Below are positions 21,966 to 60,862 of a stretch of DNA of 64,000 bases, piece by piece. Position 1 is the first letter of the stretch. The number at the start of each line of letters is the position of its first letter. The notes beneath the pieces are model-generated. The model was not told the DNA's origin and did no database searches. It saw only the letters and a list, made by a program, of their open reading frames with translations. Where the stretch lies: NCBI GenBank assembly GCA_031404815.1, contig JANNIH010000013.1:45196-109195 (forward strand). The letters run 5' to 3'. This DNA comes from Holophagales bacterium (GTDB taxonomy: Bacteria; Acidobacteriota; Thermoanaerobaculia; Multivoradales; UBA5704). Made by a program: the position numbers and the translations under genes.

Positions 21966-22961
21966 CTAGTAGCGGAGCAGGTCGCGGACCTTCGCGACCA
22001 GCTTCTCGGCGTTGGGCAGGTAAAACTCTTCCATCGTTGGGCTGAACGGCACGGGGGTATCCGGGCAGCAGAAACGGGTCACCGGCGCGTCGAGGAAGCC
22101 GAAGGCCAGCTCGCCGATCCGTGCCGCCACCTCCCCCGCGACCGAACCGGTCGTCTGTTCCTCGGTCAAAACCAGCACCCGACTCGTCTTCTTGGCGGTC
22201 GCAAGGATCGCTTCCTGGTCGAGCGGCTTGATCGTGCGGAGGTCCAGAACCTCGATCTCGATGCCCTCGGCCTCGAGGAGTGCGGCGGCATCCAGAGCCA
22301 CATGGAGCATAGCACCGTAGGTGATGATCGACAGGTCACGGCCGGTGCGCGCCAGACGCGCCTTGCCGATCGGCACGATCCAGTCTCCCTCCGGCACCTC
22401 TTCCTTGATCCGCCGATAAAGGTACTTGTGCTCGAAGAAGAGCACCGGGTTCGGATCGCGGATCGCCGCACGGATCAGCCCCTTGGCATCGATCGCGCTC
22501 GATGGGGCGACGATCTTCAAGCCCGGCGTGTGCTGAAAGTAGCTCTCCGGGTTCTGGCTGTGAAACGCCGAACCGTGGATGTTGCCGCCCGACGGGCCGC
22601 GGATCACAATCGGCACGCTCTGGCCCCAGCGGTAGCGGCAGGTCGCGGCGAAGTTGATGATCTGGTTGTAGGCGCACGAGATGAAATCGATGAACTGCAT
22701 CTCGACGATCGGCCGGAGCCCCATCATCGAGGCGCCGATCGCCGCCCCCACCATGCCCGATTCCGAAATCGGCGTATCGATCACTCGCGACGGGCCGAAA
22801 TGGTCGAGGAAACCGGCCGTGACGCGGAACGCGCCGCCGTAGGTGCCGACATCCTGGCCGAGCAGGAAGACCCGCTCGTCCTTCTCCATCTCGTCCCACA
22901 TCCCCTGGCGGATCGCTTCGAGGTAGGTCTGGGTTGTCGTCGCTCGGGTTGGCGAGTTCAT
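21966..22961 (-). CDS. pdhB: 2-oxoacid (pyruvate/branched-chain) dehydrogenase E1 beta subunit.
   Basis: Transketolase-like beta subunit, 331 aa. Overlaps the E1 alpha stop. Confidence 0.9.
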   Translation of the reverse strand: MNSPTRATTTQTYLEAIRQGMWDEMEKDERVFLLGQDVGTYGGAFRVTAGFLDHFGPSRVIDTPISESGMVGAAIGASMMGLRPIVEMQFIDFISCAYNQIINFAATCRYRWGQSVPIVIRGPSGGNIHGSAFHSQNPESYFQHTPGLKIVAPSSAIDAKGLIRAAIRDPNPVLFFEHKYLYRRIKEEVPEGDWIVPIGKARLARTGRDLSIITYGAMLHVALDAAALLEAEGIEIEVLDLRTIKPLDQEAILATAKKTSRVLVLTEEQTTGSVAGEVAARIGELAFGFLDAPVTRFCCPDTPVPFSPTMEEFYLPNAEKLVAKVRDLLRY

Positions 22962-24073: not shown

Positions 24074-24091
24074 CGGCAAGCTCCTTCCGCC

Positions 24092-34757: not shown

Positions 34758-36185
34758 CTACGCCTCCGGCACGAACGTAGCGTGGAAGCAGAGGTGCTGC
34801 GCTTCCGGAAACCGCACCCGCGCGCGCGGGCCGGCGGCGACGTTCCAGGCGTCGAAGAGCGCGAGATCCGTGGTACCCCGGGCGGCGTCGAACAGCGGGC
34901 AGAGGAGGACCCCCTCTTTCTCCCGGTCGGGATCGGGGACCACCACCGGCTCGGCGGCCGGGTAGACCCCGGCGGGCGCGGTCCAGAGATCGCGCGGCCC
35001 ACCCGTTTCAGTCCAATCGAGATGGACGAGCTGATCGAAAAATTTCCGCCCTTTCCTGCCGGTGGTCGAAACACCGAGCACCCAGACGTCGTCGATCGGC
35101 CGGGCGAAGCGGCGCGGGTCGATCGCCGGAAAATCGGGCGCTCCTTCGTAGGATGAGGCCCGGCGTTCGACCACGGCGCCCCAACCGAGATCGACGCTTA
35201 GGCGGACCAGGCGACCGGGCGAAACATCGACGAACAGATCGGGGAGCGGTTGATACTGATCGTAGACCGGCCGGTCGAGCTCGATCAGATCGAGAGTCAG
35301 TCGATCGCCCTGGTCCCAGGCGTTCGCGAGATGCAGACAATAGCCGCCATCGAGCGGGATCGTCATCACGCCCTCCCCAGTCGCCCGCTCGACCACCACG
35401 AGCCGGCTCCCCAGCTCTTCGCGCCAGACCAGGCAATCCTGGAGCGACTTAGGCCCCGCGAGCAGCGGCGCGATCTCGATCACGTAGGGCGACAGGTGAA
35501 AGATGCAGAAGCGCTCCGAGACCGCGAAATCGTGGAGCACCGCGGGTCGGTCGATCGGGATCCGACGGCGCAGCGCGAGCGCGCCGTCCGCGCCGAAGCG
35601 ATAGAGCGTGACACTCGGTTGCGCCCCGGCGAACGAAGCGCCGAAATGGATCAGCTCTCCCGTGTGCGGATCGAGCTTCGGATGGGCGGCGAGCGGCGAC
35701 AGCGCGTTCAGCCTGCCGCCAAACGTGTACTCGCCCCGAGTCTTAAGCGTTTCGGGATCGAGGTCGTAGGGCAGCCCCTGCTCGCCGCTCGCGAGCAGCC
35801 GGCCCTGCCAAGGAATGACGCTCACGTTGGCGGGTGAAGCGAGCGCCACGCCGCGGATCAGACCGTCGCCGGGAAACGCGGTGCCGAAGGCCCGGTAGAT
35901 CGCGCGCCCTGCCGCCACCTCCTCGCGCCGCTTGGCGGTCGCGACGTGGCGCGCGGTCGCCCGCGGCGCCGCCCCCCCCTCGAACCGGACCGAGACGACG
36001 CGGCCGTCGCCGTCGAGCCAATGGCGATACGAGAGATCGGCACGGCCGAAGCTCGCCGGCCCGTTTGCGATCCAACAGCCCGAGAGGTAGCCGGGCAGCT
36101 CCCCAGCCACTTCGAGCTCGACCGCATCTATCTCCCCCGGCTCGGTCGCGAAAGCCGTTTCGATCCCCGGGGCAAAGTCGTTCAT
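34758..36185 (-). CDS. Carotenoid/stilbene cleavage oxygenase (RPE65/CCO family).
   Basis: CCO-family layout with conserved His-containing blades (HWLDGDG, FHLSPYV, CLHLANAW...). Start MNDFAPGIETAF. Confidence 0.7.
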   Translation of the reverse strand: MNDFAPGIETAFATEPGEIDAVELEVAGELPGYLSGCWIANGPASFGRADLSYRHWLDGDGRVVSVRFEGGAAPRATARHVATAKRREEVAAGRAIYRAFGTAFPGDGLIRGVALASPANVSVIPWQGRLLASGEQGLPYDLDPETLKTRGEYTFGGRLNALSPLAAHPKLDPHTGELIHFGASFAGAQPSVTLYRFGADGALALRRRIPIDRPAVLHDFAVSERFCIFHLSPYVIEIAPLLAGPKSLQDCLVWREELGSRLVVVERATGEGVMTIPLDGGYCLHLANAWDQGDRLTLDLIELDRPVYDQYQPLPDLFVDVSPGRLVRLSVDLGWGAVVERRASSYEGAPDFPAIDPRRFARPIDDVWVLGVSTTGRKGRKFFDQLVHLDWTETGGPRDLWTAPAGVYPAAEPVVVPDPDREKEGVLLCPLFDAARGTTDLALFDAWNVAAGPRARVRFPEAQHLCFHATFVPEA

Positions 36186-36204
36186 CGGGAACGTTCCCTC
36201 CGCC

Positions 36205-38001
36205 TCAAGCGACCGCGAGAGCCGGGACAGGCTCCAGCGTCGGTTCGGGCACCGCGGAGCGGCTCGACACAGGGCTTGGCGCACCGAGCGCCCGGCGGAG
36301 AATCATCGGATCGAAGCCCCACTCCATCTCTCCGGGAATCGCGCGCGCCTCGTCCCAGGCCGCTCCGAGCGCCACCGGATCGAAACGGAGATGTTCGAGG
36401 TCGATCCGCTCCACGAACGCGCGGCTCGAGAAGACCTCTGCGGTGCCGAGCACCGTCGAGGCCACTTGGGCCACCGTGTAGCGCGCCTGGATCTCAAGCG
36501 ATGAGAGCGCCCGGTCGAGCACGCCGCGCGCCTCGACCGGGTGGAGGCCGATCTTGTAGAACGACTGCTCCGCTTCGCGCAAGGGCCCGATCGACGGAAA
36601 GTCGAAGAAGATCGGCGCCCTGGGCGCAGGCAGACCCGCGGTCAATTTCCAGCGCTGGAACTCGGCGAGGAAGGTCTGCAACCCCAGATTCCACGGCCCG
36701 AGCTTGGCGAACCGGCGCAGAAACGAGGGGAGGAAGATCGGGTCGGTGAACAGGTCGTTGATGAACGGAAAGACATAGAAATTGAAGTAGATCGACAGCT
36801 CCCATGCGTAGCGGAGGGTGAACGCCTCCTGGTCACCGAGCGTGTTGTACGACAGCAGGTAGCTCGGCACGTACGCCTCGTAGAGACCGCGGGCGAGCGT
36901 TTCGTACAAGCGCACCTTGGTCGCGAGCAGCCCACCATCTGTGGTGCGGATCGCGTCGGTGATCAACGTGTTGTGGACCGCGATCAGGTCGCCCCCCGGG
37001 CTGTAGAGCGGATCGGAGAATCGGCACGCCTCGCCGGTGAGCGCCCACCGCTCGTTCGACAAGGTCTGCCGGCAGTCGTGGGCGAAGCTCACGAAACCGG
37101 AACCGTCGAAGATCTTCCGTTGCGGCAGGTCGCGGGCGAAGAGCGGAAACTCACGGCAGATCCAGGCCACCAGCTTCTCCGGGCTGGACACCTCGGCGCG
37201 GTGGATCTTTTGGGAGTCGTAGACCAAGCCGAGGCTGGTCTTGCCGTGCAGCGGGATGACCCAGAACCAGAAACCGTCGCCGCAGAAGTGGTTGGTGGCC
37301 AAGAAGGTCGGCATGTGGCCGAGCGCCGCGCGGTCCGGGCGCTTGCGGATCTCTCCCGCCGACAGATCGGTGAGCTTCTCAGGATCGAGCAACCCTTCGA
37401 CCCAGAAGAACGAGGTGCCATGGCGGATCGGGCTCTCGGCCAGCAGGCCGAGCTTCTTGGCCAGGAAGCGCCGACGCCCCGACGCATCGACCACCCAGCG
37501 CGCTCGTCCCTCGACCCGCTCGCCGTCGGCCGCGGTGTAGCTGAACTCGTGGCGCGCGTCGCCGGCCCCCATTTCGACTTCCAGCCCCGAGATCGGAGCG
37601 GCCAGGGTGAAGCGCGGATCGGCCGCATTCACCCGCAGCAACTCGGCCTCCAGGAGGTTCCGGTCGAGCTGGTAGGTCGCGATGTTCGAGACCGATTTGA
37701 TGTACGACTGGCTGTACCCCTCAGCGCGATCTTCGAGGCCCGGCACTTTCCACCAGAAGCGGAGGTTGTACTTCAAGTAGTGCTGCCGCAGCAGATGCTC
37801 TTCCAACTCGAGCACGCGCGAAAAGTAATAGCCGGAGACCTGCACCGTCGCCTCGCCCACCTTCTGCTTCTCGGGCGGCACCGCTCGACGATCGACCAGG
37901 TGGACCGAAGGGACGCCTTCTAGCAACAGCTGGCGAGCGAGCGACAGGCCGGCGAGACCGGCCCCGACGATCAGGACGTCGCAGTCGAGGGTTCGTGTCA
38001 T
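36205..38001 (-). CDS. Flavin-dependent halogenase (tryptophan-halogenase family).
   Basis: GAGLAGLSLA FAD fold plus the diagnostic GDGFWFWVIP (WxWxIP) motif. Confidence 0.75.
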   Translation of the reverse strand: MTRTLDCDVLIVGAGLAGLSLARQLLLEGVPSVHLVDRRAVPPEKQKVGEATVQVSGYYFSRVLELEEHLLRQHYLKYNLRFWWKVPGLEDRAEGYSQSYIKSVSNIATYQLDRNLLEAELLRVNAADPRFTLAAPISGLEVEMGAGDARHEFSYTAADGERVEGRARWVVDASGRRRFLAKKLGLLAESPIRHGTSFFWVEGLLDPEKLTDLSAGEIRKRPDRAALGHMPTFLATNHFCGDGFWFWVIPLHGKTSLGLVYDSQKIHRAEVSSPEKLVAWICREFPLFARDLPQRKIFDGSGFVSFAHDCRQTLSNERWALTGEACRFSDPLYSPGGDLIAVHNTLITDAIRTTDGGLLATKVRLYETLARGLYEAYVPSYLLSYNTLGDQEAFTLRYAWELSIYFNFYVFPFINDLFTDPIFLPSFLRRFAKLGPWNLGLQTFLAEFQRWKLTAGLPAPRAPIFFDFPSIGPLREAEQSFYKIGLHPVEARGVLDRALSSLEIQARYTVAQVASTVLGTAEVFSSRAFVERIDLEHLRFDPVALGAAWDEARAIPGEMEWGFDPMILRRALGAPSPVSSRSAVPEPTLEPVPALAVA

Positions 38002-38053
38002 GGCGGTCCCTTTCTGCTCGAACCCCTTGAGGAGGAGTCCGAGGGCAAGTTCG

Positions 38054-39292
38054 TTACGCGTCGGGCGCCCCGACCAACAGCGCCATCACCGGTCCGTCGG
38101 CCGAGACCGAGGTCGCGAGCGCGAGCGCGCCGGGCCGCACGGAGATCTGTTGCACCGCAGCCGAAACGCCGCCGAGCGGGAATCCGTCGTCGGTCGCTTC
38201 GAGCCCGATGACCCCCGGTAGACGCCCGTCGGCCAAGGAAGCGATCAGACTCATCACTTGGAACACGCCAGAGGCCCCGAGAGCTTCCCCCAACCTCGAT
38301 TTGATCGCGGCGACCGGTAGATCCAACCCGTTACCCGAGCCGCTCTCAAGCCCCCGGGCGATCCCCGCGGCCTCGAACCGGTCGAGATCGCGCGCACCGC
38401 TCGCGCCGGAACCGACGCAACAGAGGTCGGCGCGCAAGGCGCCGCGATCCGCGAAAGCGGCGTCGATCGCCCGTGCGAGCGCGCCGGCCAGATCCTCGCT
38501 CCGGTCCGGCGCGAACGCCGCGCCGCTCCCCGCGATCCGCGCCAAGACCGTGGCACCACGCGCCGCCGCCACCTCGGCCGCTTCGAGCACCAGCAACCCC
38601 GCCCCTTCCGCAGGCACAAAACCGGTGCGCCGTCGGTCGAACGGAATTGAGACTCCCCCAAGGCCGGCGAGCCGCCCGGCGCGCGAATAGGCGAGCGCCG
38701 ATTCGAAGCAGAGCTCCTCCACCCCACCCGCGAGCACCACATCGGTCTGGCCGGTGCGGATCAGGTCGGCGGCGTAGGCGATCGCCTGAAGCCCGGAAGT
38801 CTCCCCGCCGCCGAGTGTCGAGTTGACTCCGGAGAAGCCGTGCCAGATCGCCGCCTGGCCGGCTGCGGCGTTGATCACACTGTTGGCGAAATCGAACGGG
38901 GAGACGTAGTTCGGTCCGAGCTTCAAGCCGCGGCGGTCGAACTCGGCGATCGTGTGCATGCTGCAGTAGGTCGTGCCGACCACCAGCGACAGCTCGCGCC
39001 CGCCGCGCGCCTCAGGGCTCCAGCCGGAATGTTCGAGCGCGCGGGTGGCCGCCGAGATCAACAGCCGCGAGGTCCGGTCGAGCGGCCGCAGGTTCCGGTC
39101 GCCCAAATAGCGTTCCGGCTCGAACGGCCGGATCTCGCCGCCCACCTGGGTCGTGAGCAGGCTCGAATCGAACAACTCGATCGGGCCGATCCCGCTCTGC
39201 CCGCCGAGCAGCGCCTCGTGCACCGCGCCCAACTCGTCGCCGAGCGGCGAAAGCAGGCCGATCCCGGTGACCACGACCGCGCGCTCAGACAC
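38054..39292 (-). CDS. Ketosynthase-like protein lacking the active-site Cys (chain-length-factor-like, KS-beta).
   Basis: Thiolase fold. Where KS-alpha has TACAAG this protein has GGETSG, with Cys replaced by Glu. Translationally coupled to KS-alpha. Confidence 0.65.
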   Translation of the reverse strand: MSERAVVVTGIGLLSPLGDELGAVHEALLGGQSGIGPIELFDSSLLTTQVGGEIRPFEPERYLGDRNLRPLDRTSRLLISAATRALEHSGWSPEARGGRELSLVVGTTYCSMHTIAEFDRRGLKLGPNYVSPFDFANSVINAAAGQAAIWHGFSGVNSTLGGGETSGLQAIAYAADLIRTGQTDVVLAGGVEELCFESALAYSRAGRLAGLGGVSIPFDRRRTGFVPAEGAGLLVLEAAEVAAARGATVLARIAGSGAAFAPDRSEDLAGALARAIDAAFADRGALRADLCCVGSGASGARDLDRFEAAGIARGLESGSGNGLDLPVAAIKSRLGEALGASGVFQVMSLIASLADGRLPGVIGLEATDDGFPLGGVSAAVQQISVRPGALALATSVSADGPVMALLVGAPDA

Positions 39293-40535
39293 GAGGCCTC
39301 CGGAAGATCACCGAGGCGTTGTTGCCGCCGAACGCGTAGGCGTTGTTCATCGCGACCGAAACCGGAATCTGGCGCGCCTGGTTCGGCACGCAATCGAGAT
39401 CGCATTCCGGATCGCTCTCCTCGAAGTTCATGGTCGGTGGGATCCACCCCTCGTGGATCGCGAGCGCACAGACCGCCGCCTCGATCGCCGACGCCGCGCC
39501 CATCGTGTGGCCGATCATCGACTTGATCGAGCTGATCGGCACCCGGGACCCGCGCCCGAACACCCGGTGCACCGCGAGCGTCTCCAGCTTGTCGTTGGTG
39601 GGCGTCCCGGTGCCGTGGGCGCTCACGTAGGAGACCTCTTCCGCGGACAGACCGCCCGCGGCGAGCGCCCGCTCCATCGCCCGCGCCGGTCCGTCCCCTT
39701 CCGGGTGCGCCGCGGTCATGTGGTGGGCGTCGCACGATAAGCCGTAGCCGGCGATCTCGGCGTAGATCCGGGCGCCGCGCGCGATCGCCCGCTCGGTCGG
39801 TTCGAGCACAATCACGCCCGCCCCTTCGCCCGGGATCATTCCCTTCCGTCCCTTGGCGAACGGACGGACGACGTCCGGCGCGATCGCGCCTAGTTTCGCG
39901 AAACCGGTGTACGTGATGCGCGAGAACGCGTCCGCCCCTCCGGCGATCATCAGATCAGCCCGGCCGGCCCGGAGCAGATCGACGGCGTGGGCGATCGCGT
40001 AGTTGCCCGCGGCGCAGGCGGTCGGGATCATCTGGTTCGGCCCCGCGAACCCGAGTTCGGAGGCGACATTGGCCGCGATCAGATGGCACGGATAGCGGCC
40101 GGCCAGCTCGCCCCCCAGCTCGCCGAGCCGGTCGCCGAGCATCAGGTTGTCCAGGTGCTCGATCTCCAGCGGCTCGCCGGAGGTCGTGCCAAACGCGACC
40201 CCGACGCGCTCCGACCGTTCGAGGGGCATGGGCGCCAAATCGACCCCTGCGTCGGCGAGCGCCAGACGGGCCGCTGCGATCGCGAGCTGGGACGCGCGCC
40301 CCATCGAATCGACCCGGAGCCGGCGGACCCAGGCGGTCGGGTCGAAATCCGGCACCTCGGCCCCCAGGTGCGCCGAGTGGCGCGAGGTGTCGAATGAAGA
40401 GACCGGCCGGAACCCCGAGCGCCCGGCCAGGAGGCCGGGCCAAACCGTTTCGTGGCCCGAACCGATCGGGGTGACCAGCCCGAGCCCGGTGACGGCGATC
40501 GCGGTCGTCCGGCGTTCTCCCGCGCTCGACCTCAC
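39285..40535 (-). CDS. Beta-ketoacyl synthase (KS-alpha) with intact Cys-His-His.
   Basis: IPTACAAGNYAIAHA active site. HGTGT and GHT..AAS motifs present. Confidence 0.8.
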   Translation of the reverse strand: MRSSAGERRTTAIAVTGLGLVTPIGSGHETVWPGLLAGRSGFRPVSSFDTSRHSAHLGAEVPDFDPTAWVRRLRVDSMGRASQLAIAAARLALADAGVDLAPMPLERSERVGVAFGTTSGEPLEIEHLDNLMLGDRLGELGGELAGRYPCHLIAANVASELGFAGPNQMIPTACAAGNYAIAHAVDLLRAGRADLMIAGGADAFSRITYTGFAKLGAIAPDVVRPFAKGRKGMIPGEGAGVIVLEPTERAIARGARIYAEIAGYGLSCDAHHMTAAHPEGDGPARAMERALAAGGLSAEEVSYVSAHGTGTPTNDKLETLAVHRVFGRGSRVPISSIKSMIGHTMGAASAIEAAVCALAIHEGWIPPTMNFEESDPECDLDCVPNQARQIPVSVAMNNAYAFGGNNASVIFRRPRV

Positions 40536-40794
40536 GCCGAGACCGGCGCCAACTCGGCGAGTCGCGTCTCGACCAGATCGACCATCTGCGGCAGGGTGGC
40601 CAGCTCCTTGTAACGCTCGTCAGGAAGATTGAGTTGGAACGAGTAATCGACATCGACGCCTATCTCGAGCAGCGACAGCGAGTCGAGCGACAAGTCGTCG
40701 CGCAGCGAATCTTCGTCGCCGATCTTCTCGCGCTTCAAGCCGGCGACGTTCGCGATGATTTCCTTGATCTTTTCGCGGATCTCGATTCTTTCCA
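40532..40794 (-). CDS. Acyl carrier protein.
   Basis: LSLDSLSLLEIGV phosphopantetheine-attachment motif. RBS AGGAGGAA. ATGA overlap with KS. Confidence 0.75.
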
Positions 40795-41016
40795 TGACTT
40801 CCTCCTGGTTGCCCGGTCGCACCCCGTTTGCCGGCGAATCCTAGGCCTCTTCCGCTCGGAAGTGAATCTTCTCTAGCGTCGGAAGGTCCTTTGAAATAAG
40901 GACTTGCGCGTCTCGTCCCCAAAATTTCACCATCCCGCCAGAGAGAGGCTCCGGGGCGGCGCGAAGCGTTACACGCACCCCGCTATCCGGGAAATCTCGG
41001 TTCAGGACCCAAGGGC

Positions 41017-41898
41017 TCAAACCAAAAGAATGAGGGCGACCCCCGCGGCCATCAACACCACCGCGACAAGTTTGCGCAACGTAATCGCCTCAGCGAACGC
41101 CAGGCGTCCGATCAGGAGTGCGAACAGATTGCCGATCGCCCGCTTGAGCGTCTCGACGACCCTCACCGACACCGTCTGGAGCGCCGCGAGCTGAGCACCG
41201 AGCGCGAGCGCGGAGACCACGAGCGCCGCCAGAAACAGCCCCGGCGACCGGCGCAGCTCGAAGAGTTGGTGGAGCTCGCGGCGCTGGGCCAAGATCAGCA
41301 GAGCCGCCAACGCGACACCAAGATTCAACACCAAGGCGTGCAGCGGCGGGTGCGAATGGGACACCGCGAGCTTGTCGAGAGGGATGGTGAGCGACCAGCA
41401 GAGGGCGGTGCCCGCCATCAGCCAGAATCCGCGCCGGGCGAGCATCGAGCGCAAGCTCCACCTCCGCCCGCCGCTCGGCGCTTGGAGGGCAAGAGCACCG
41501 ATCACCACCAGCGCGATCCCGCAGCCGTCAGACACGGACGGCCGCTCGCCGAGCAGGGGGATCGCCATCACCGAAGCGAACGCCGGGGTGAGCGAAAGGA
41601 GCGGCACCGCAACCGACAGTTCGGCCGTGCGCAGCGCTTCGAGGAACAACAGATTCGCCACCACGTTCAGGGCGACCGAGCCGAGCGCGGGAGCCCAGTA
41701 GCCCTCAGCCGTTATGAAACCACCCTGCAGGTACGCCCAGAGCGCGAACGGGGGCGCCGACGCGAGGCAGAGCGCAGCCATCAGCGGCAACGGGCCGAAC
41801 TCGCGCGACAGGAGCTTCCTCAACAGGTCGAATCCCGCCCACGAGAGCGCCGAGACCATCACGAGGGCGAGCGAGCCGGCGGCGATTCCATCCATCAT
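41017..41898 (-). CDS. EamA/DMT-family transporter.
   Basis: Ten predicted TM helices with two EamA-like halves. Confidence 0.6.
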   Translation of the reverse strand: MMDGIAAGSLALVMVSALSWAGFDLLRKLLSREFGPLPLMAALCLASAPPFALWAYLQGGFITAEGYWAPALGSVALNVVANLLFLEALRTAELSVAVPLLSLTPAFASVMAIPLLGERPSVSDGCGIALVVIGALALQAPSGGRRWSLRSMLARRGFWLMAGTALCWSLTIPLDKLAVSHSHPPLHALVLNLGVALAALLILAQRRELHQLFELRRSPGLFLAALVVSALALGAQLAALQTVSVRVVETLKRAIGNLFALLIGRLAFAEAITLRKLVAVVLMAAGVALILLV

Positions 41899-42038
41899 GA
41901 CTGCAGGGGGGCTCCTCGAAAAAGGACGTGCGACTCTACCGCGGAACCGCCCGCCGGTCGGCCACCTGGTATCGTGCGGCAGCCGTGTCCTCCACTTGCC
42001 CAGAAGCCAGAACCACCGATCCCCCGGCCATTCCCCCG

Positions 42039-42959
42039 ATGCCGTTCGTGCTCGGCGTCGGCCGCTCCGGCACCACGATGCTGCGCCTGATGCTCGACGC
42101 GCACTCCCGGCTCGCGATCCCGCCCGAGACCGGTTTTTCCGAGGAGATCGAGCGCCGCATGTCGGCGGGAGTGTCGCTCGCCGAGGCGGCGCTCGGCGCC
42201 ATCTCCGACTGCGACAACGCTCAGAGCTTTGGCCTCGCCGCGGACGACCTGGCGCGCGCGTTCGCCCACCTCCCGCCCGGCGACCGGTACGGCACCGGGG
42301 TTGGACTCGCTCTGCGCGCGTTCTACCGCCTCTATGCCGAAACCCAAGGGAAGCCGCGCGCGGGAGACAAGACGCCGATCCACACCGGCCACATCACGCG
42401 CCTCGCGCGTTACCTACCGGAGGCGCGCTTCATCCACTTGATCCGCGACGGCCGCGATGTCGCGGCGTCGATCCGCGATCTCTGGTTCGCCCCCAGCCGC
42501 GAGTTGGGCGCCTTGGCCCTTTGGTGGCGGGAAACTATCGAGGCGGCGCGGCGCCAGGCGAGCGATCTACCGGCCGGCACCTACCTCGAAGTGCGCTACG
42601 AAGAGCTGGTCGCGCATCCCGCCGCAGAACTCCAACGGATTTGCGCGTTCGCCGATCTGCCGTTCGAACCCGAGATGCTCGACTTCCACGCCCGCGCCCC
42701 GGCACGCCTCGCCGAAATGCAGACGGTTCGCGGGCAAGACGGCCGGGTGGTGATCACCGACGAGGAGCGACGCCACCAGCACCGGCTGACCACCGAGCCG
42801 CCCCGCACCGAACGGATCGGCCGCTTCCGCAGCGTCCTTACCCACCGAGAGATAGCGAAGTTCGAAGCGGAAGGCGGCACCTTTCTGCGGGACCTCGGCT
42901 ACCCGCTGGTCACCAGCTCTTGGGCGCGGCTTCGGGCGCGCATCTCCCGTTCGAGATAA
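42039..42959 (+). CDS. Sulfotransferase (Stf0-like family).
   Basis: PAPS-binding loop FVLGVGRSGTTML. RDGRDV motif. Confidence 0.65.
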   Translation: MPFVLGVGRSGTTMLRLMLDAHSRLAIPPETGFSEEIERRMSAGVSLAEAALGAISDCDNAQSFGLAADDLARAFAHLPPGDRYGTGVGLALRAFYRLYAETQGKPRAGDKTPIHTGHITRLARYLPEARFIHLIRDGRDVAASIRDLWFAPSRELGALALWWRETIEAARRQASDLPAGTYLEVRYEELVAHPAAELQRICAFADLPFEPEMLDFHARAPARLAEMQTVRGQDGRVVITDEERRHQHRLTTEPPRTERIGRFRSVLTHREIAKFEAEGGTFLRDLGYPLVTSSWARLRARISRSR

Positions 42960-44485
42960 TCGCGCAGCGGCGCAACGTGCAGCGCCTGGTCGTGCCACTC
43001 ACCGAACAGGTGCTCGAGCATGTGGTGCTCGGAGAGCTTCTCGCCGGCGCGGAAATGGCGGACCACGGGGTGGAGGAAGAAGCTCTCCTCCGCCGCTTCC
43101 GGGTCGGGACGGCGAACGACGTTGAACGGGTCACCCTCCGTTGTACCGAACTCCAGGGTGACGACGTAGCAGTCGGAGTTTCGATCCAGCGCGATCTCCC
43201 GCAGGTAGTCCACCGGCATCTCTTCGAGCCTGCGCCCTTCGATCCCTTCTTTCGGCAGCACGAAGATCTCGGCCAAGTAACCGAACATCTGCCAGAGGGC
43301 CGAAGTCTGGTTGATGCGCGTAAGAATCGCTCGCGAGAGCCCATCCGGCGTGGCGGCAAACGGCGCCACGGGCCAGGGATTCCCTTCGTAACGCTCCTCC
43401 AAGATGCGATGGAGGGCGCGGCAGTTGTAGCGGAAGCCGTGGATGAACCCGGACGTGATCTTCTTGAAGTCGCGCATCTGCATGAGGCCGCCCGCGATGT
43501 AGAGATCGGGGATGTTGACCGATTCCCAGGCGCTCGTCTGGTCCGGAAAGCGATCTTGGATCGCGAGCTTCGGCCGGCAGCTCGCATCGAAAATCGAGTC
43601 GTCGAAGCGGAAGCCGGTGCAGGCGATCACCCGGTCGTAGATCAGCGCCTCCTGCTCCTGGTGGGCGTGGGTGTAGGTGACTTTGACTTGGAACTTACCA
43701 TCCTCGCGCTTCTCGATGCACTGGATCGAACAATCGAGCACGGCGTTCTGCGATTTCAGCTGGTAGGTGTCGAGCAGGTTGTTGTTGACCGCGCGCAGGT
43801 GGCCCACATGGTGGGTGCGCCAGGCGAATTGGACCGGCCGGGGGCTCGCGATGTGGATGATCGCCGCGCGCGACACCAGATGGTCGGCGGTCTCGAAACC
43901 GGAGTTCCCTTTGCCGATGATCAACACCCGCTGGTTGCGAAACTCCTCGCGGTCGAGCGAGACATCGACATAGTTGTCCGCCAAATCGATGCCCGGAATG
44001 TCAGGAACGAAGGGGCGCGAGATGCCGGTCGCGACGATCAGCCGCCGGGCCGCGAAGGTTTCGCCCGCCGCGGTTTCGACCTGGAAGCGACCGTCGCGTG
44101 ACACCCGGGTCGCCCGCGCGCCGTAGCGGATACGCAGCGCGAAGCGCTCGGCGAACTCTTCGAGGTAGCGCACCATGAGGTCGGCGTGCGGGAAGAAGTC
44201 TAGGCTGTAGTTTTTGAACAGTAGCTCCGAGTCGTCGCTGAGCAGCGAGTTCCAGTCGAAGCGGAGGTTGACCTCCGGATCGTCGTAGCCGGTAAACACC
44301 TTGTTGTTCGAGATCAGTTGGCGATGGCGCGGAAAACGCCGGAAGAAGTCTCCGGCGCCCGCAGCCGCTTCGAGGATCAGATAGTCCCGCCCGGCGCGCT
44401 CGAGGAAGTAGCCCAGCTGAAGGCCCGCCGGGCCGGCACCAAGGATCAGATAGTCGACCAGGACGGACGCTTCGGGCTGGTTCAT
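42899..44485 (-). CDS. FAD/NAD(P)-binding oxidoreductase (flavin monooxygenase-like).
   Basis: Two Rossmann motifs: YLILGAGPAGL and VLIIGKGNSGFE. RBS GAGAGGAG. Confidence 0.65.
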   Translation of the reverse strand: MNQPEASVLVDYLILGAGPAGLQLGYFLERAGRDYLILEAAAGAGDFFRRFPRHRQLISNNKVFTGYDDPEVNLRFDWNSLLSDDSELLFKNYSLDFFPHADLMVRYLEEFAERFALRIRYGARATRVSRDGRFQVETAAGETFAARRLIVATGISRPFVPDIPGIDLADNYVDVSLDREEFRNQRVLIIGKGNSGFETADHLVSRAAIIHIASPRPVQFAWRTHHVGHLRAVNNNLLDTYQLKSQNAVLDCSIQCIEKREDGKFQVKVTYTHAHQEQEALIYDRVIACTGFRFDDSIFDASCRPKLAIQDRFPDQTSAWESVNIPDLYIAGGLMQMRDFKKITSGFIHGFRYNCRALHRILEERYEGNPWPVAPFAATPDGLSRAILTRINQTSALWQMFGYLAEIFVLPKEGIEGRRLEEMPVDYLREIALDRNSDCYVVTLEFGTTEGDPFNVVRRPDPEAAEESFFLHPVVRHFRAGEKLSEHHMLEHLFGEWHDQALHVAPLRDYLEREMRARSRAQELVTSG

Positions 44486-44632
44486 TGGAGCTCCTCTCGT
44501 TGGCTTCGGTGGAAGGTGCGGCCTCGAGTTCTCGCCCGAACATGAGACCTCCCAAAGCTGGTGGTGCTCGCGGGGGTCTCTAGGGGTCCACGTTTGGACA
44601 AGTCGGTTGGAATCGAACCGCACTCAGCGCAC

Positions 44633-45295
44633 TCAGCCAGGGAAGCGCCTGGCGAGCCAGGCCTCGACCTCCTCCGGATGGAAGCCGAACGGCCCGGTTT
44701 TCCCCTTGTAGACGAGGGTCTTTTTTTCGTCGATCACGTAGATCCGTTCCGGCCAGCCGGCGTAGGCGGCATCGGCCGGATTGGTGATGTCATCGACCAG
44801 GAGGGGAATCGGAAAGCGAAAACGGCGCACCATGTCGTTGGCGATCGCCACGCGCGCCGCCGTGCTCTTAGGCTGCGGGTAGCAGACGCCCTCTTTCTCG
44901 TTGCTCTCCATTTGCCACTCGTCGGTCGGATGGGCTTCGCGGATGTAGACCGCAACGAACGTCGCGCGGTCCCTATAGCGGCGGTACATCTGGCTCAGGC
45001 GCTCGACCGAGCGCCGGAACGGCGGTCAGGTGTAGCTGCCGAAGATAAGAACGAGCGGTCTCTCCCCCATCCGTTCGCTTAACCGAACGCGGGTGCGGCC
45101 GTCGAGCGCCAAGAGCGAGACATCCGGCGCCCGGTCGCCTATTTCAAGCGCGCCTTCCTGCCGCGTGTCGTAGCGCAGCATCCCCCAGACGTTGCTCGGA
45201 CCGATGGTGACCAACGCCCAGGTGGCGGCGCCGACCATGGCAACACCCAACACGAGGCCGGCCCAACGGAGAGTTCTCGTCAAAACGGTTTTCAT
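44633..45295 (-). CDS. Iodothyronine-deiodinase-like selenoprotein. The in-frame TGA at 45026-45028 reads as selenocysteine in the FGSYT-U-PPF active-site motif.
   Basis: The two track ORFs (45026-45295 and 44633-44989) are in the same frame. Their junction reads PLVLIFGSYT-TGA-PPFRRS...FVAVYIREAHPTDEW, which is collinear with the deiodinase FGS.TUP.F...YI.EAH..DGW core. N-terminal TM anchor. A SECIS-like hairpin sits 11 nt downstream. Confidence 0.65.
44998..45015 (-). other. SECIS-like hairpin (GGCGCUC-GGUC-GAGCGCC) beginning 11 nt 3' of the UGA.
   Basis: Perfect 7-bp GC stem with a GGUC apical loop, at the spacing bacterial SECIS elements use. Confidence 0.5.
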
Positions 45296-45491
45296 GGCGG
45301 CTCCTTCGCACCCTCGTTTCCCCGCGTGTCAACGAGTGCGGGCAAGACCCTTTTAGGCGTCCGCGCGCACTCTCTTTCAATAGGGGTGCGCGCACCGCGC
45401 ACTCGGGGGACGTTTCGGAGCGAGCCATCGAGCGCTCGGACTCAGAGTTACCCTCTCGCCTTGGACCCAAAGGGTCCGAAAGGAGTCACAG

Positions 45492-45788
45492 ATGTCTAAA
45501 CTGTCGCTCGCCTTCCTCGCCGTGCTCTTCCTCGTCGTGCCGGCAATCAGCCGAGCAGCGTCCTACTGCGAAAAAGACTTTTACAGCGACGCGACCTACA
45601 CGAACTTGGTGGGCGGCCGAACCACCAACTGCCAAGGGCAGACTTACTCCTGGGGTGTTGTGACCGCTTTTAAGCTCGGTGGCTGCGAGCCCTGCGGCGG
45701 TGCCGCGGTCTCTCTTTCGACCCAAGAGTCCGGAACGGCGAAACCGCTGGACCTCGCCCCCGCCGCCTGCCTGGCGCCGATTCGCTGA
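45492..45788 (+). CDS. Small secreted Cys-containing hypothetical protein (98 aa).
   Basis: Signal peptide MSKLSLAFLAVLFLVVPAISRAAS. RBS AAAGGAG. Confidence 0.45.
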   Translation: MSKLSLAFLAVLFLVVPAISRAASYCEKDFYSDATYTNLVGGRTTNCQGQTYSWGVVTAFKLGGCEPCGGAAVSLSTQESGTAKPLDLAPAACLAPIR

Positions 45789-47042: not shown

Positions 47043-48569
47043 ATGCGACCTGCCACCTCCCTCGCGCCGGGGTTCTTCGGTCTGACGCGCTCGGCTCCAA
47101 ACGCCGAGCTGCTCGGCCGGGTGACCCACCCGAGCCTCCGCGCCCTTCGGGCCGCGCGCTCCGATCGCCCGCTCGCCGAGGCGCTCGAAGCCCACGCGCA
47201 GGCACAAGAGCCACAGGCCGGCGTTGTGCTCACCCCCGAGCAGCGCCTGCTCGGGCGGATCTCGTTCGGCCCCACGAGCGCGGATCACGCCCGGATGCGC
47301 CAAATCGGCTACACCGCCTACCTCGAAGAGCAGCTCGCCTACACCCGGCTGGATGATTCGGAACTCGAAAACGCGCTCACCGCGGCGTTCCCGACGCTCT
47401 CGATGACCCCTGCCGAGCTGTATTTCGGCGACAACTTCGACCTCACCTATGAGCTGCCGATCGCCGCGATCTACCGCGCGATCTACAGCAAGCGGCAACT
47501 GTTCGAAACCATGGTCAACTTCTGGACCGACCATTTCAACATCGACCTCGGGGGCGACACCGCCCACTTCTTGAAGCATGTCGATGAGCGCGACGTGATC
47601 CGCAAGCACGCGCTGGGGAAGTTCCCCGATCTGCTGCGGGCGAGCTCGAAGAGCCCGGCGATGCTCACCTACCTCTCGAACGACTCGAACTACGCCGACT
47701 ATCCGAACGAGAACTACGCCCGCGAGGTGATGGAACTCCATTCGCTCGGCGCCGACCAGGGGTACACCCAGATCGACGTGCGCGAGCTCGCCCGCTGCCT
47801 GACCGGATGGTTCATCGTCTACGAGGAGGACGTGAACAACTTCGGCAAGTTCAAGTTCGAGCCCGACGCCCACGACAATGGCGCGAAGCGGGTGATCGGG
47901 TTGGCCATCCCCGCGGGCGGCGGCGTCACCGATGGCGAGAAGGTGATCAACCGCCTGGCGCTCCACCCGAACACCGCCAAATACATCGCGAGGAAGCTGC
48001 TGATCTACTTCTGGGGCTACGAACCGCCGCAGAACTACGTCAACCGGGTGGCCACGGTCTTCCGAAACACCGGCGGCGATATCAAGGCGATGCTGCGCAC
48101 GATCCTCCAGCGGAGCTGGATCGAAAACGCCACTCCGAAGCTCAAGCGGCCGTTCCACTACGCGGCCTCCGCCGTGCGCGCGACGTTCGGCGCGGTCGAC
48201 GAGCCCGGTCCGCTGTTCGACCACCTCGCGGACTCGGGCCAGCTCCCCTATTACTGGTCGCCGCCGAACGGCTATCCGGACACCCGCGTCTACTGGTCGG
48301 GATTCCTGCGCAATCGGTGGAACTTCTCGCTCGATATGGCGGCCACGGACTCGCTCGGCATCCGACTCGACCTGGACGCATTTCTGGGCCTCAGCCTTTC
48401 TCCGCAGGCGCTCACCACGCGGATCAACGCGCTGGTCGCCAACGGCAAACTCGCCCCGATCACCCAGAATGCCGTGCGCGATTTTCTCCGCGCCGGCTCC
48501 CGCACCACCGGGCGCGTCCGCGAAGCGCTCGGCCTCGCCCTCGCTTCGCCCGATTTTCAGGAATTCTGA
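47043..48569 (+). CDS. DUF1800-family protein.
   Basis: Typical DUF1800 length and motifs (...HSLGADQGYTQ..., WFIVYEEDVNNFGKFKF...). Always paired with DUF1501. RBS GGAAGGAGA. Confidence 0.7.
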   Translation: MRPATSLAPGFFGLTRSAPNAELLGRVTHPSLRALRAARSDRPLAEALEAHAQAQEPQAGVVLTPEQRLLGRISFGPTSADHARMRQIGYTAYLEEQLAYTRLDDSELENALTAAFPTLSMTPAELYFGDNFDLTYELPIAAIYRAIYSKRQLFETMVNFWTDHFNIDLGGDTAHFLKHVDERDVIRKHALGKFPDLLRASSKSPAMLTYLSNDSNYADYPNENYAREVMELHSLGADQGYTQIDVRELARCLTGWFIVYEEDVNNFGKFKFEPDAHDNGAKRVIGLAIPAGGGVTDGEKVINRLALHPNTAKYIARKLLIYFWGYEPPQNYVNRVATVFRNTGGDIKAMLRTILQRSWIENATPKLKRPFHYAASAVRATFGAVDEPGPLFDHLADSGQLPYYWSPPNGYPDTRVYWSGFLRNRWNFSLDMAATDSLGIRLDLDAFLGLSLSPQALTTRINALVANGKLAPITQNAVRDFLRAGSRTTGRVREALGLALASPDFQEF

Positions 48570-48597
48570 TCGCCCGCGCCGGCGAGGAGACCCGTTC

Positions 48598-49890
48598 ATG
48601 AGCTCGCATGAAGAGAAGAAGGGTTGCACGGAATTCCATCAGCTGTCTCGGCGCCGGTTCCTCGGCCTGTCGGCCGGAGCGCTGGCCGCGACGGCGGTCC
48701 CCGCCTGGTTGCCCAAAGTCGCATTCGCCACCACCGGTGGCTCGCGCGATGTCCTGGTTTCGATCTTCCTGCGCGGCGGCGCCGACGGCCTCACCCTCAT
48801 CGTGCCGCACGGCGAGAATGCCTACTACGACCTGCGGCCGACGCTCGCGATCCCCCGCCCGGGGAGCGGACCCACCTCTGCGATCGATCTCGACGGCTTC
48901 TTCGGGCTGCCGCCTGCGATGAGCGCGCTTAAAGAAGCGTACGACGACGAGGTACTCCTGTTCGTCCACGCGACCGGCCTGCCCGATCCGACCCGCTCTC
49001 ACTTCTCTGCCATGTACTTTATGGAGGTTGGCCGGCCTTCGCCCCCGACCTCGCTCTTCTCCGGTTGGCTGGGCCGCCACCTCGCGACCACCCCGGCCGC
49101 CTCTCCCGGTGCGCCGCTGCGCGCCCTCGGCCTTGGCTACGGCTTGCCGCGCAGCCTGGTGGGCGCCCCCCAAACCGTGCCGGTGCGCGACCTGGGTAAC
49201 GTCGGCCTGGCGGGGGACGAGGATCTCGCACCCGGGCGCCGCAGGGCGCTCGACAGCATGTACGCGGCGGCGACCGACAGTCTGCTCAAGGCGTCGGCGA
49301 GCAACACGACGCGGACCATCGACCTGCTTGAGCAGATCGACTTCGCCGGCTATCAGCCGGCCGGCGGCGCGGAGTACCCGGACGACGAGTTCGGCAACGC
49401 GCTTAAATCGACCGCGGCGCTGATCAAAGCGCAGGTGGGGGTCGAAGCGGCGACGATCGATCTCTCCGGCTGGGACAGCCATGAAGAGATGGGCGCGATC
49501 GACGGCGATCTGGCCGCGTTGATGACCAGCCTGTCGCGCGGCCTCGCGGCATTCCACAAAGACCTGTTCACCAGCGGTTTCGACCGGGTGGTGGTGACCG
49601 TCCAGTCGGAGTTCGGCCGCAACGCGAACGAAAACGCGAGCCGCGGCACCGACCATGGCCATGGCGGCGCGATGATCGTGCTCGGCGGCCAGGTGGCGGG
49701 CGGCCGGGTGCTCGCCGACTGGCCCGGATTGGCCCCCGAACAACTCTACGAAGAGCAAGATCTCCAGATCACGATCGACTACCGCGACGTGCTCGCCGAG
49801 ATTTTGGAGAAGCGGCTCGGCAATACGAACCTTGCCGCGGTCTTCCCCGATCCGGCCTACACCCCGAGCTTCAAGGGTGTGATTCGGTAG
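48598..49890 (+). CDS. DUF1501-family protein with Tat signal.
   Basis: RRRFLGLSAGALAA twin-arginine motif. ...TDHGHGG... sulfatase-like core. Confidence 0.75.
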   Translation: MSSHEEKKGCTEFHQLSRRRFLGLSAGALAATAVPAWLPKVAFATTGGSRDVLVSIFLRGGADGLTLIVPHGENAYYDLRPTLAIPRPGSGPTSAIDLDGFFGLPPAMSALKEAYDDEVLLFVHATGLPDPTRSHFSAMYFMEVGRPSPPTSLFSGWLGRHLATTPAASPGAPLRALGLGYGLPRSLVGAPQTVPVRDLGNVGLAGDEDLAPGRRRALDSMYAAATDSLLKASASNTTRTIDLLEQIDFAGYQPAGGAEYPDDEFGNALKSTAALIKAQVGVEAATIDLSGWDSHEEMGAIDGDLAALMTSLSRGLAAFHKDLFTSGFDRVVVTVQSEFGRNANENASRGTDHGHGGAMIVLGGQVAGGRVLADWPGLAPEQLYEEQDLQITIDYRDVLAEILEKRLGNTNLAAVFPDPAYTPSFKGVIR

Positions 49891-58723: not shown

Positions 58724-59978
58724 CGCGGCGGACCCGCTTCGGTTCCACCGTGAGCGGTTCGTCCTGCCGGCAGGCCTGATCTATCTCGACGGCAACTCGC
58801 TCGGCGCGCTGCCGAAGGTGACGGCGGAGCGGGTCAGGAAGGCGATCGAGGAGGAGTGGGGGCGCGACCTGATCCGGAGTTGGAACAGTGCCGGCTGGAT
58901 CGACTTGCCCCTCGCAGTCGGCGACAAGATCGGCCGGCTGATCGGCGCCGCACCGGCCGAGACGGTGGTCGCCGACTCGACCTCGATCAACCTCTTTAAG
59001 GTGCTCGCGGCGGCGCTCGCGCTCCGCCCAGGGCGGCGGCGGATCGTGTCGCAGCGCGACAACTTCCCCACCGAACTCTACATCGCCCAAGGGCTCACCG
59101 GCCTGCTCGGGGGCGACTACGAGCTCACCCTGCTCGACGACGACCCGAGCGTCGAGGCGATCGAGAGCGCGCTCGCGGCGGGCGGCGGCGGTGACTCCGG
59201 TGACTCCGGTGACTCTAACATCGCGGTCCTCTTACTCACCCACGTCAACTACCGGACCGGGCGCCTGCACGACATCGAGCGGCTCTCGGCCGCAGCGCAT
59301 CGCGCGGGCGCCCTGGTGGTCTGGGATCTCGCGCACACCGCCGGGGCGATCCCGGTCGATCTGAATGCCGCCGACGCCGATTTCGCGGTCGGCTGCGGCT
59401 ACAAGTATCTGAACGGCGGCCCGGGGGCGCCCGCCTTCCTCTGGGTTGCCGCGCGCCACCAAGAGGTGTTCGCGCAGCCGCTCTCCGGCTGGCTCGGCCA
59501 TGAGGCGCCGTTCGATTTCGACCCGACCTACCGGCCCGCGCCGGGCATCTCCCGCTATCTGTGCGGCACCCCGCCGGTCCTCTCGATGACCGCGCTCGAC
59601 TGCGGGGTGGAGAGCGTGCTCGCCGCGGACCTCCAAGCGCTGCGCCAAAAATCGATGCGCCTCACCGACCTGTTTATCGAGTTGGTCGAGGCGCGCGTCG
59701 GTTCGGCTTCCGGTCTCACCCTCGCCTCACCCCGAAACGCGCTGGAGCGCGGCTCGCAGGTGAGCTTCCGCCACCGCCAAGGGTACGCGGTCATGCAGGC
59801 ACTGATCGCGCGCGGGGTGATCGGCGATTTTCGTGCGCCCGATATCCTTCGCTTCGGTTTCGCGCCGCTCTACCTGCGCTACGTCGATGTCTGGGATGCC
59901 GCCGAGGCACTCGGCGATCTGCTCCGCACCGGCGCCTGGGATCGCCCCGTACACCACCAGCGCGCGGCGGTGACTTAA
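58689..59978 (+). CDS. kynU: Kynureninase.
   Basis: [13 protein letters not shown]..., [15 protein letters not shown]-enzyme motifs. N-terminus collinear with bacterial KynU. Confidence 0.85.
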
Positions 59979-59983
59979 AAGTG

Positions 59984-60862
59984 CCGTCCGACCGAAAGGC
60001 CTCCGAACCGTTGAGCCACATTCCAACCCCCACCGATCCGAGCGGCCGCCTGGGCGGCGCCCTCACCGACTTCGAAAAGCGGATGAGCTACGGCGACTAT
60101 CTGGCCCTCGACCAGATCCTCGACGCCCAGCATCCCCGTTCGGAAGACCCCAACGAATTGCTGTTCATCATCCAGCACCAGACCAGCGAGCTGTGGATCA
60201 AGCTGATGCTCCACGAGCTGGAGCAGGCGCTGGCTTGGATCCGCGGCGACCAGCTGCCCCCCGCCTTCAAATGCCTCGCGCGGGTGTCGCGCATCTTCGA
60301 GCAGCTGGTCCAATCCTGGAGCGTGCTCGCCACCCTCACGCCTTCCGAATACGCCCGCATCCGCCCGCACCTCGGCCATTCGAGCGGCTTTCAATCGTGG
60401 CAATACCGTCTGGTCGAGTTCTATCTCGGCAACAAGAGCGCGGTGCTCGTCGGGCCGCACACCCATCGCCCCGATCTGGTGGAGATCCTTGAGCGGGCGC
60501 TCGCCGCCCCGTCGCTCTACGACGAGGCGATCCGCCTGCTCGCCCGGCGCGGGTTCGCGATCGACCCGGCCGTCCTTGAACGCGACGTAGCGCTCCCCCA
60601 CACCTCAAACCCGAGTGTCGAAGAGGCATGGCTCACCATCTACCGCAACAGCGGTGAATACTTCGAACTCTACGAGCTGTCCGAGGAGTTGGTCGATCTG
60701 GAGGATACGTTCCTGCAATGGCGTTTCCGCCACATGGTGACGGTCTCGCGGATCATCGGCGCGAAACCCGGCACGGGCGGCACCGAAGGGGTGCCCTACC
60801 TGCGCCGGGTGCTCGAAACCCGACTCTTTCCCGAACTCTGGCAGGCGCGGTCGGAGCTGTAA
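59984..60862 (+). CDS. kynA: Tryptophan 2,3-dioxygenase. GTG start 5 nt after the kynU stop.
   Basis: [31 protein letters not shown] and WRFRHM..V.R.IG.K.GTGG are TDO signatures. N-terminal length matches Xanthomonas-type TDO. Confidence 0.85.

Follow-up and report, generated by a model that had tools for sequence, protein, structure and literature searches.

An in-frame UGA, very probably read as selenocysteine, in a deiodinase-like gene conserved among Acidobacteriota

Introduction

A 64,000-nt stretch of contig JANNIH010000013.1 from a Holophagales bacterium (hereafter the window, 66% G+C, to whose positions all coordinates refer) contains a deiodinase-like gene whose reading frame is interrupted by a TGA codon. 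Does this codon end a protein, or is it translated? An earlier note on this DNA had proposed that the UGA encodes selenocysteine (Sec) and is served by a selenocysteine insertion sequence (SECIS) of the bacterial type. On the basis of the comparative sequence analysis described here, this proposal is upheld by the conservation of the TGA and of both half open reading frames (ORFs) in relatives, and by covariation in the hairpin that follows the codon. The best explanation of the locus is very probably that of one intact gene, in which the UGA is recoded as Sec by way of a downstream SECIS.

Results

A single reading frame across an in-frame TGA

The complete gene for the deiodinase-like selenoprotein occupies 45295..44633 on the minus strand, as delimited by its single frame, by matches to the Pfam family PF00837 and to the mouse deiodinases Dio3 and Dio2, and by tblastn. 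It comprises 220 sense codons including the UGA, plus a terminal stop (221 codons). The sole internal TGA of the frame is located at 45028..45026 (minus) and the terminal TGA at 44635..44633 (minus), which verifies the earlier claim that the two halves are one in-frame gene split at a TGA, although the strand had been left unstated. The internal codon (45026..45028, minus) is predicted to specify selenocysteine 90 in the motif FGSYT-U-PPF, as judged from the homologous codon in relatives and from the alignment of Cys- and Sec-type proteins. It is preceded by the residues ERPLVLIFGSYT (LVLIFGSYT) and followed by PPFRRSVERLSQMY (PPFRRSVERL). Twenty-seven codons past the TGA is the sequence YIREAHPTDEW (residues 117-127; 44915..44947, minus), which the alignment with Dio2 and Dio3 identifies as the deiodinase loop-D edge motif; this motif and the junction are both read in the translation, just as had been described. 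The excess of G+C at third codon positions that is expected for coding DNA is present on both sides of the TGA.

A Shine-Dalgarno-like element, AAGGAG (45301..45306, minus), was read from the sequence 5 nt before the ATG at 45295..45293, and no such element was seen ahead of the internal ATG at 44989. The presence of AAGGAG before 45295 favours initiation at this position over ATG 44989, the start used in public gene calls. A scan for promoters and terminators around the gene gave nothing useful. The N-terminus contains a hydrophobic segment (residues ~11-31, WAGLVLGVAMVGAATWALVTI; 45203..45265, minus), recognized by Kyte-Doolittle analysis, in which the top 19-residue window spans residues 13-31 with a mean of 2.02. 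It is likely a signal-anchor or transmembrane helix. With K2, R7, and R10 ahead of this segment, the positive-inside rule, which is the sole basis for the topology, would probably place the catalytic domain outside, in the periplasm.

Conservation of the UGA and of both halves

A scan covering one genome per prokaryotic species gave at least 569 relatives, the 80 best of which (57-80% identity) were analysed as related loci. These are derived mostly from metagenome-assembled genomes (MAGs) of Thermoanaerobaculia/Acidobacteriota, and they also include Holophagales, Polyangium sp. 6x1, one Polyangiaceae MAG, one Planctomycetota MAG, and one Pseudomonadota MAG. The homologous codon is an in-frame TGA in 80/80 of these loci, and their tblastn matches cross it to cover residues 1-220. 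Two more distant loci, L082 and L083, have TGA at the same codon as well, which makes 82/82 Sec-type loci altogether. The earlier note had considered that homologues might show two separate genes with a real stop; instead, all 80 loci keep both halves in frame. In an alignment of 83 Sec-type sequences, on which residue conservation was counted, conservation of at least 95% is seen at R41, Y42, D43, R45, G48, G53, A56, P57, and other positions upstream of the TGA, which shows that the N-terminal half is translated and selected as part of the same protein.

A protein-database search with U replaced by C in the query retrieved 788 relatives. Full-length matches (P0002-P0017-type) have Cys at the TGA position, and three calls of the Joint Genome Institute (JGI) have W. 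The alignment to Cys- and Sec-type homologues that had been suggested as a check thus places the TGA on the Cys of the bacterial homologues and on the Sec-to-Cys site of Dio3 and Dio2.

Public gene calls shorten the protein to 118-135 aa or print Trp at the TGA. The gene call for the exact window sequence is a 118-aa C-terminal fragment that starts at the internal ATG 44989. Similarly, about 100 of the best 120 protein-database relatives are 121-135-aa pieces that start at a Met 12 residues past the TGA and are 66-83% identical to the C-terminal half. Two of the JGI records with W were checked, namely L083:533-1567 (P0011) and L082:265-894 (P0005), and in both the DNA has TGA. The earlier expectation that standard pipelines would mis-annotate the gene is borne out by these calls. 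As a separate observation, the L083 call runs upstream through a second TGA to give an artefactual 344-aa protein, and a glutaredoxin gene (101-370) lies immediately upstream.

A SECIS-like hairpin downstream of the UGA

The SECIS-like hairpin GGCGCUC-GGUC-GAGCGCC is located at 44998..45015 (minus) and was recognized from its sequence, from covariation, and from frozen synonymous sites. Its 5' arm occupies 45015..45009, the GGUC loop 45008..45005, and the 3' arm 45004..44998. The distance from the UGA is 10 nt to the 7-bp stem, 11 nt to the conserved 6-bp core GCGCUC/GAGCGC, and 17 nt to the loop. In bacterial SECIS elements the UGA-to-loop distance is 16-37 nt, and the apical loop is small and contains a G (PMC10778597; PMC1088965); the GGUC loop at 17 nt falls within this range. 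The earlier description of a perfect hairpin at bacterial SECIS distance was thus exact with respect to the arms and the loop.

Covariation was assessed on 81 aligned sequences, of which 78 distinct rows were counted. Of the cells of the 7-pair helix, 86% are paired, compared with 30-68% once its 3' side is shifted by 1-3 columns. Compensatory double changes occur at two base pairs, one of which changes from G-C to C-G ten times and to A-U once, and the other from U-A to G-C four times (with U-G in a further eight cases). The covariation score of 0.114, against 0.044 in shuffles, was reached by 0/500 shuffles, a comparison to be read with the caveat that related sequences can outscore shuffles without any structure. 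Some of the compensatory pairs alter the protein, converting Ser-Val-Glu to Ala-Val-Ala (RRSVER to RRAVAR), and peptide conservation alone as the cause of the hairpin is contradicted by these changes. In addition, synonymous variation is all but absent from the third codon positions of the stem and loop (codons +5 to +8), with CGC in 80/81, TCG in 73/74, GTC in 80/81, and GAG in 67/67 sequences, whereas elsewhere in the gene Arg, Ser, Val, and Glu use 3-5 synonymous codons. The hairpin is under RNA-level selection. The covariance check proposed for the SECIS therefore came out in its favour, both in the helix and at the synonymous sites.

The distant TGA relative L083, whose peptide at this place is RRQIGDL, has a different 7-bp hairpin, CCAGAUC-GGC-GAUCUGG, 14 nt past its UGA. 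The SECIS position is without a hairpin in two distant Cys-type homologues, whose peptides there are RRNTSD and RRNTGD. A further Cys-type sequence from JGI metagenome 3300037479 (L084:29-664, P0009) has TGC and reads FGGFTCPPFRRSVERL, and it keeps a hairpin, CCGCUC-GGUC-GAGCGG, at the SECIS position. This hairpin may be either a fossil SECIS left by a recent Sec-to-Cys change or the mark of a one-base sequencing or assembly error.

Protein family, fold, and active site

Reading U as C gives a match to the Pfam family PF00837 (T4_deiodinase) at E=1.7e-36 and 126.2 bits, against a cut-off of 27, with residues 47-217 aligned to profile positions 70-236 of 237; weaker matches are to AhpC-TSA and Redoxin. 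The protein is a member of the deiodinase-like family, as the earlier note had it. It also matches the catalytic cores of mouse Dio3 (4tr3, E=1.1e-24) and Dio2 (9h48, E=4.4e-24), with the TGA on their Sec-to-Cys position. The match to the NCBIfam model NF038285 (deiodinase family protein) scored 211.3 bits, short of the cut-off of 250, and covers only profile positions 177-339 of 347, so the protein is related to this hypothetical equivalog and not a member of it. The fold was assessed on the AlphaFold model of the Cys-type homologue P0009, which is 52% identical and has a predicted local distance difference test (pLDDT) score of 87.9. The nearest PDB structures to this model are Dio3 (4tr3, E=3e-14) and Dio2 (9h48, E=2e-13), with template modelling (TM) scores of 0.79-0.82 by target, followed by membrane thiol-disulfide oxidoreductases of the ResA/TlpA/DsbE type and 1-Cys peroxiredoxins. 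The model has a long N-terminal helix at residues 2-25.

The roles of residues in the active site and proton relay have been described for Dio2 (PMC11592359). Dio2 Ser127, Thr129, Tyr157, Glu160, His162, and Trp167 correspond here to S87, T89, Y117, E120, H122, and W127, each of which is at least 95% conserved in the Sec-type sequences, as is the YIREAHPTDEW motif. The active-site motif is U-P-P-F in 83/83 sequences; there is no Cys at +3 and hence no UxxC. A Cys is present further on, at position 138 (TGC; 44882..44884, minus), in 83/83 Sec-type sequences; Dio3 and most Cys-type homologues have Val there. On these grounds, we propose Cys138 as a candidate resolving cysteine for Sec90.

Alternative explanations of the TGA and the hairpin

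Several results weigh against the reading of the locus as a SECIS-dependent selenoprotein gene of the deiodinase family. Folding of the single sequence is not significant (z = -1.25), as 23/200 shuffles of this 66% G+C DNA fold equally well, and for this reason the comparative evidence was relied upon. A search of Rfam (E up to 10) with 44600..45400 gave two chance-level matches and no SECIS family. The lower helix predicted by RNAfold on the window sequence is maintained in just 46-78% of cases; it was not counted as part of the element, and what is conserved is merely 5-6 bp plus the tetraloop. Neither a tRNA-Sec nor selA, selB, or selD was found in the window by ARAGORN and a Pfam scan of about 40 window ORFs, and the flanks of the 80 relatives (1.33 Mb) gave no tRNA-Sec by ARAGORN and no SelA, SelB, or SelD motifs. 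With regard to the protein, the second relay His (Dio2 His182, Dio3 His219) is not conserved, the aligned residue being an invariant Pro142, and the clamp for the substrate carboxylate (Dio3 Arg275, Dio2 Lys241) is absent, with Thr200 here and Pro or Thr across the clade. Binding of a thyronine-type substrate is therefore unlikely. Finally, no conserved operon partner in the 80 loci hints at a substrate or a reductant.

Acidobacteria are recorded as Sec users (PMC1794560). TGA is the stop of 16/32 confident window genes, the selenoprotein gene included, and the code is thus not reassigned genome-wide. Scans for additional genes with an in-frame TGA and a hairpin gave none that is convincing in the window besides the deiodinase-like gene, and two unconvincing matches in the flanks of relatives. 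A candidate at 60607 (minus) was rejected because its frame, judged by eye, looks antisense to the plus-strand ORF 59561..60862. A literature search combining Thermoanaerobaculia and selenocysteine returned no papers.

If the TGA were a real stop, the locus would be either a pseudogene or two small genes, one for an 89-aa membrane peptide and the other for the 118-aa C-terminal fragment. This is how public callers treat it, here and in the roughly 100 similar fragments of relatives, and no Sec machinery is visible in the window. However, a stop that disabled the gene would not have come to stand at the same codon in 82/82 diverged relatives from several phyla, with both halves kept in frame and conserved at the amino acid level. 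The split would also cut the thioredoxin fold through its active-site motif and leave the C-terminal piece without its catalytic residue, and the good Shine-Dalgarno element stands before 45295 and not before the internal ATG. A real stop is, in our judgement, extremely improbable. Reading of the UGA as an amino acid other than Sec, by a suppressor or allo-tRNA, by a SelC*-type tRNA-Cys, or under a code in which TGA is Trp or Gly, has some precedent: Acidobacteria carry 8/4 and 9/3 allo-tRNAs able to suppress nonsense codons, and the tRNA-Cys of this type can insert Cys at UGA in some anaerobes, although its genes were not reported from Acidobacteria (PMC5389517). The JGI pipelines print W for the codon. 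Nevertheless, TGA terminates half of the confident window genes, family members from animals and marine bacteria have their Sec at this position, and a covarying GGUC hairpin at SECIS distance is needed by SelB recoding but not by general suppression, all of which makes such read-through very unlikely.

The remaining alternative concerns the hairpin, which might be a non-functional by-product of a conserved peptide, RRSVER, encoded in G+C-rich codons. The peptide is indeed highly conserved, the folding z is modest and no Rfam model matches, and the caveat on shuffled controls given above applies. Yet such a by-product would not account for third positions that are near-invariant in the stem and loop only, for stem changes that occur on both sides and alter the protein, or for the drop in pairing when partners are slid. 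Nor would it explain why L083, with another peptide, has a different hairpin at the same place, while the Cys homologues with RRNTSD and RRNTGD have none. We consider it highly improbable that the hairpin is a mere consequence of the peptide. Of the explanations weighed, recoding of the UGA as Sec in one intact gene is retained in what follows; from the hairpin and the family's Sec site we infer that decoding depends on SelB and that the residue is Sec.

Genomic neighbourhood and the dehalogenase idea

A flavoprotein gene of the Pyr_redox_3 type (44485..42899, minus) lies 147 nt downstream of the selenoprotein gene and is co-directional with it. Beyond it are genes for a sulfotransferase (plus strand, convergent), an EamA transporter, an acyl carrier protein, a ketosynthase (KS), a protein resembling a KS or chain-length factor (KS/CLF-like), a halogenase-like protein, and an RPE65-type dioxygenase. 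Both flavin-halogenase signatures, GxGxxG (GAGLAG) and WxWxIP (WFWVIP), are present in a 598-aa FAD protein. The region 34758-44485, mostly on the minus strand, looks like a compact biosynthetic cluster, with an RPE65/lignostilbene-type dioxygenase, a FabF-like KS with its KS/CLF-like partner, and an EamA exporter; as judged from the encoded proteins, its product could be a halogenated, sulfated polyketide or lipid.

The earlier note had placed the gene in a halogenase/KS/sulfotransferase neighbourhood and suggested a reductive dehalogenase role. The neighbouring genes are real, but the functional suggestion did not hold up against the relatives: within 10 kb, 0/80 related loci (1.33 Mb) have a homologue of the halogenase or of the flavoprotein, or any ORF with WxWxIP. 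A distant KS homologue (28-31% identity) occurs about 7-8 kb away in only 3/80 loci, and the sulfotransferase is kept only by the two closest relatives, L002 and L003. As the linkage is unique to this genome when set against the 80 loci, the neighbourhood says little about function. The recurrent neighbours in relatives, namely OmpR-type response regulators, an FmdA/AmdA-like protein, and a PKD-domain protein, are uninformative. The last belongs to a reprolysin-like secreted family (e.g., L030:11590-13563) whose gene follows the deiodinase-like gene, about 0.6 kb downstream, in 31/80 loci. The window itself has a PKD/Reprolysin_3 protein of similar size (13195-15285, plus), 30 kb from the deiodinase-like gene. 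Cys-type homologues at L085:8622-9827 and L086:3795-6302 are flanked by 2-3 CMD/AhpD-like genes and a class V aminotransferase (cysteine desulfurase-like), a context that suggests peroxide or thiol redox chemistry rather than dehalogenation.

It is doubtful, then, that the protein serves the adjacent halogenase/type II polyketide synthase-like cluster as a reductive dehalogenase, taking halogen off a halogenated phenolic or polyketide product. Membership of the deiodinase family, the vertebrate-type S-x-T-U-P-P-F motif, and most of the proton-relay residues speak for such an activity, as do the co-directional flavoprotein and the flavin-halogenase-like protein in the cluster beyond it. On the other hand, the linkage is confined to this genome, with L002 and L003 keeping only the sulfotransferase, the neighbours that recur elsewhere give no hint of it, and the Cys-type homologues sit with AhpD/CMD-like genes. 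The protein also lacks the substrate clamp and second relay His found in true deiodinases, and those who originally described the bacterial family expected a different, redox function (PMC1088965). A general thiol or peroxide redox role is more likely than dehalogenation. A broader idea is that the Sec clade of Acidobacteriota as a whole constitutes a selenium-dependent reductive dehalogenase whose substrates are halogenated phenolic natural products and, in this genome, what the cluster makes. This is unlikely; if true, it would be a first among bacterial enzymes and would provide a living model for the ancestral thyroid-hormone deiodinase.

Other features of the window

Divergent from the selenoprotein gene is a gene for a Cys-rich protein of 98 aa (45492-45788, plus), which has a DUF6289 domain and whose N-terminus resembles a signal peptide. 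A DUF1800/DUF1501 gene pair, a common pairing, occupies 47043-49890 (plus), about 2 kb upstream of the selenoprotein gene. Further away, 20513-25495 (minus) contains a 2-oxoacid dehydrogenase operon that encodes dihydrolipoyl dehydrogenase E3, E1 alpha, E1 beta, and a lipoyl-E2 acyltransferase. At the edge of the window, 7-1866 (minus) encodes a 619-aa protein with phage tail-sheath domains, which may be part of a prophage tail module or of a contractile injection system.

Discussion

The results suggest the following model for the gene and its product. The protein would be a deiodinase-family member of about 220 residues with a peroxiredoxin-like thioredoxin fold, anchored in the membrane by its N-terminal helix. 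When the ribosome reaches the UGA at codon 90, the mRNA just downstream would fold into the short, G+C-rich GGUC hairpin. SelB, bound to GTP and Sec-tRNA(Sec), would bind this hairpin and deliver Sec in competition with release factor 2, whereas the terminal TGA, with no hairpin after it, would act as an ordinary stop. Sec90 would then lie at the N-terminal end of the active-site helix, within the motif S-x-T-U-P-P-F, and make the protein a one-Sec oxidoreductase, with Ser87, Thr89, Tyr117, Glu120, and His122 forming behind it a hydrogen-bond network that the vertebrate deiodinases also have. In catalysis, Sec90 may attack an electrophilic atom of the substrate, which could be the oxygen of a peroxide, a sulfur atom, or a halogen bound to an aromatic ring. 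The selenenyl intermediate formed in this way may be resolved by the invariant Cys138 to an Se-S bond, which a thiol reductant would subsequently reduce. The role of Cys138, the topology, and the class of substrate are much less certain than the gene and its recoding.

These findings do not overturn current knowledge, and their chief value lies in the correction of a systematic mis-annotation. Gene calling that is aware of selenoproteins would restore the whole clade across many MAGs of Thermoanaerobaculia and Acidobacteriota. From the existence of such a clade it would seem that soil Acidobacteriota need selenium for a conserved redox enzyme, probably an envelope-facing one. The gene is also a natural example of an mRNA structure that constrains a protein, as RRSVER appears to be held by the SECIS. 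Moreover, the clade offers bacterial, easily expressed relatives of the thyroid-hormone deiodinases in which the catalytic network is for the most part retained, and these may be of use for Sec-based dehalogenation or peroxiredoxin-like chemistry and for studying the origin of the deiodinase family.

Bacterial deiodinase-like proteins of the Sec and Cys types, with a bacterial SECIS, were described from the Sargasso Sea by Zhang, Fomenko and Gladyshev in 2005 (PMC1088965). The family was counted again in the Global Ocean Sampling (GOS) data in 2008 and is listed in prokaryotic selenoproteome reviews of 2022 and 2026; a literature search for a characterized bacterial deiodinase gave none beyond the 2005 description. 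The present gene adds a member to this family and fits it in sequence, with PF00837, an in-frame UGA, and an in-ORF SECIS. It shares with the marine members these features, a G in the small loop, the existence of Cys homologues, and a presumed redox function. In published tables, by which the comparison was made, the motif of the marine proteins is given as UxxC in the reviews and no motif is given in the GOS table, whereas the present clade has U-P-P-F and a distal Cys138. The described members come from marine metagenomes, in contrast to the present clade, which is large, derives mostly from soil or sediment Thermoanaerobaculia/Acidobacteriota, and is uniformly of the Sec type in the 80 best loci.

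Vertebrate Dio1-3 resemble the bacterial protein in having an N-terminal anchor and a thioredoxin-fold core, in about 30-33% identity, and in the motifs FGS-x-T-U-PPF and Y-I-x-E-A-H-P-x-D-x-W. However, their SECIS is a eukaryotic element in the 3' untranslated region, whereas that of the bacterial gene is a hairpin within the ORF. Dio2 His182 is replaced by the invariant Pro142, and Dio3 Arg275 and Dio2 Lys241 by Thr or Pro in the bacterial clade. The loop from the EAHP motif to the next helix is shorter in the bacterial protein than in Dio3 and Dio2, and Cys138 corresponds to Val in Dio3. A thyronine substrate is not to be expected in bacteria.

The hairpin is most similar to the SECIS of the E. 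coli fdhF type, which is likewise located in the ORF just past the UGA, with its upper stem 11 nt after the codon and a GGUC tetraloop that includes the G-U dinucleotide. In the minimal fdhF SECIS and the structures of SelB-SECIS complexes, G23 and U24 of the GGUC loop contact SelB. Unlike the fdhF-type element, the deiodinase hairpin has no bulged U in its core, and its stem is limited to 5-7 bp, with a poorly conserved lower helix and no Rfam model. Among proteins of similar fold, the TlpA/ResA/DsbE-type oxidoreductases and the 1-Cys peroxiredoxins, which are the next-best structural matches, share the N-terminal anchor and a thioredoxin-fold domain that probably faces outward. Those proteins employ a CxxC motif or a peroxidatic Cys, whereas the protein described here has a single Sec, no Cys at +3, and the motifs specific to the deiodinases.

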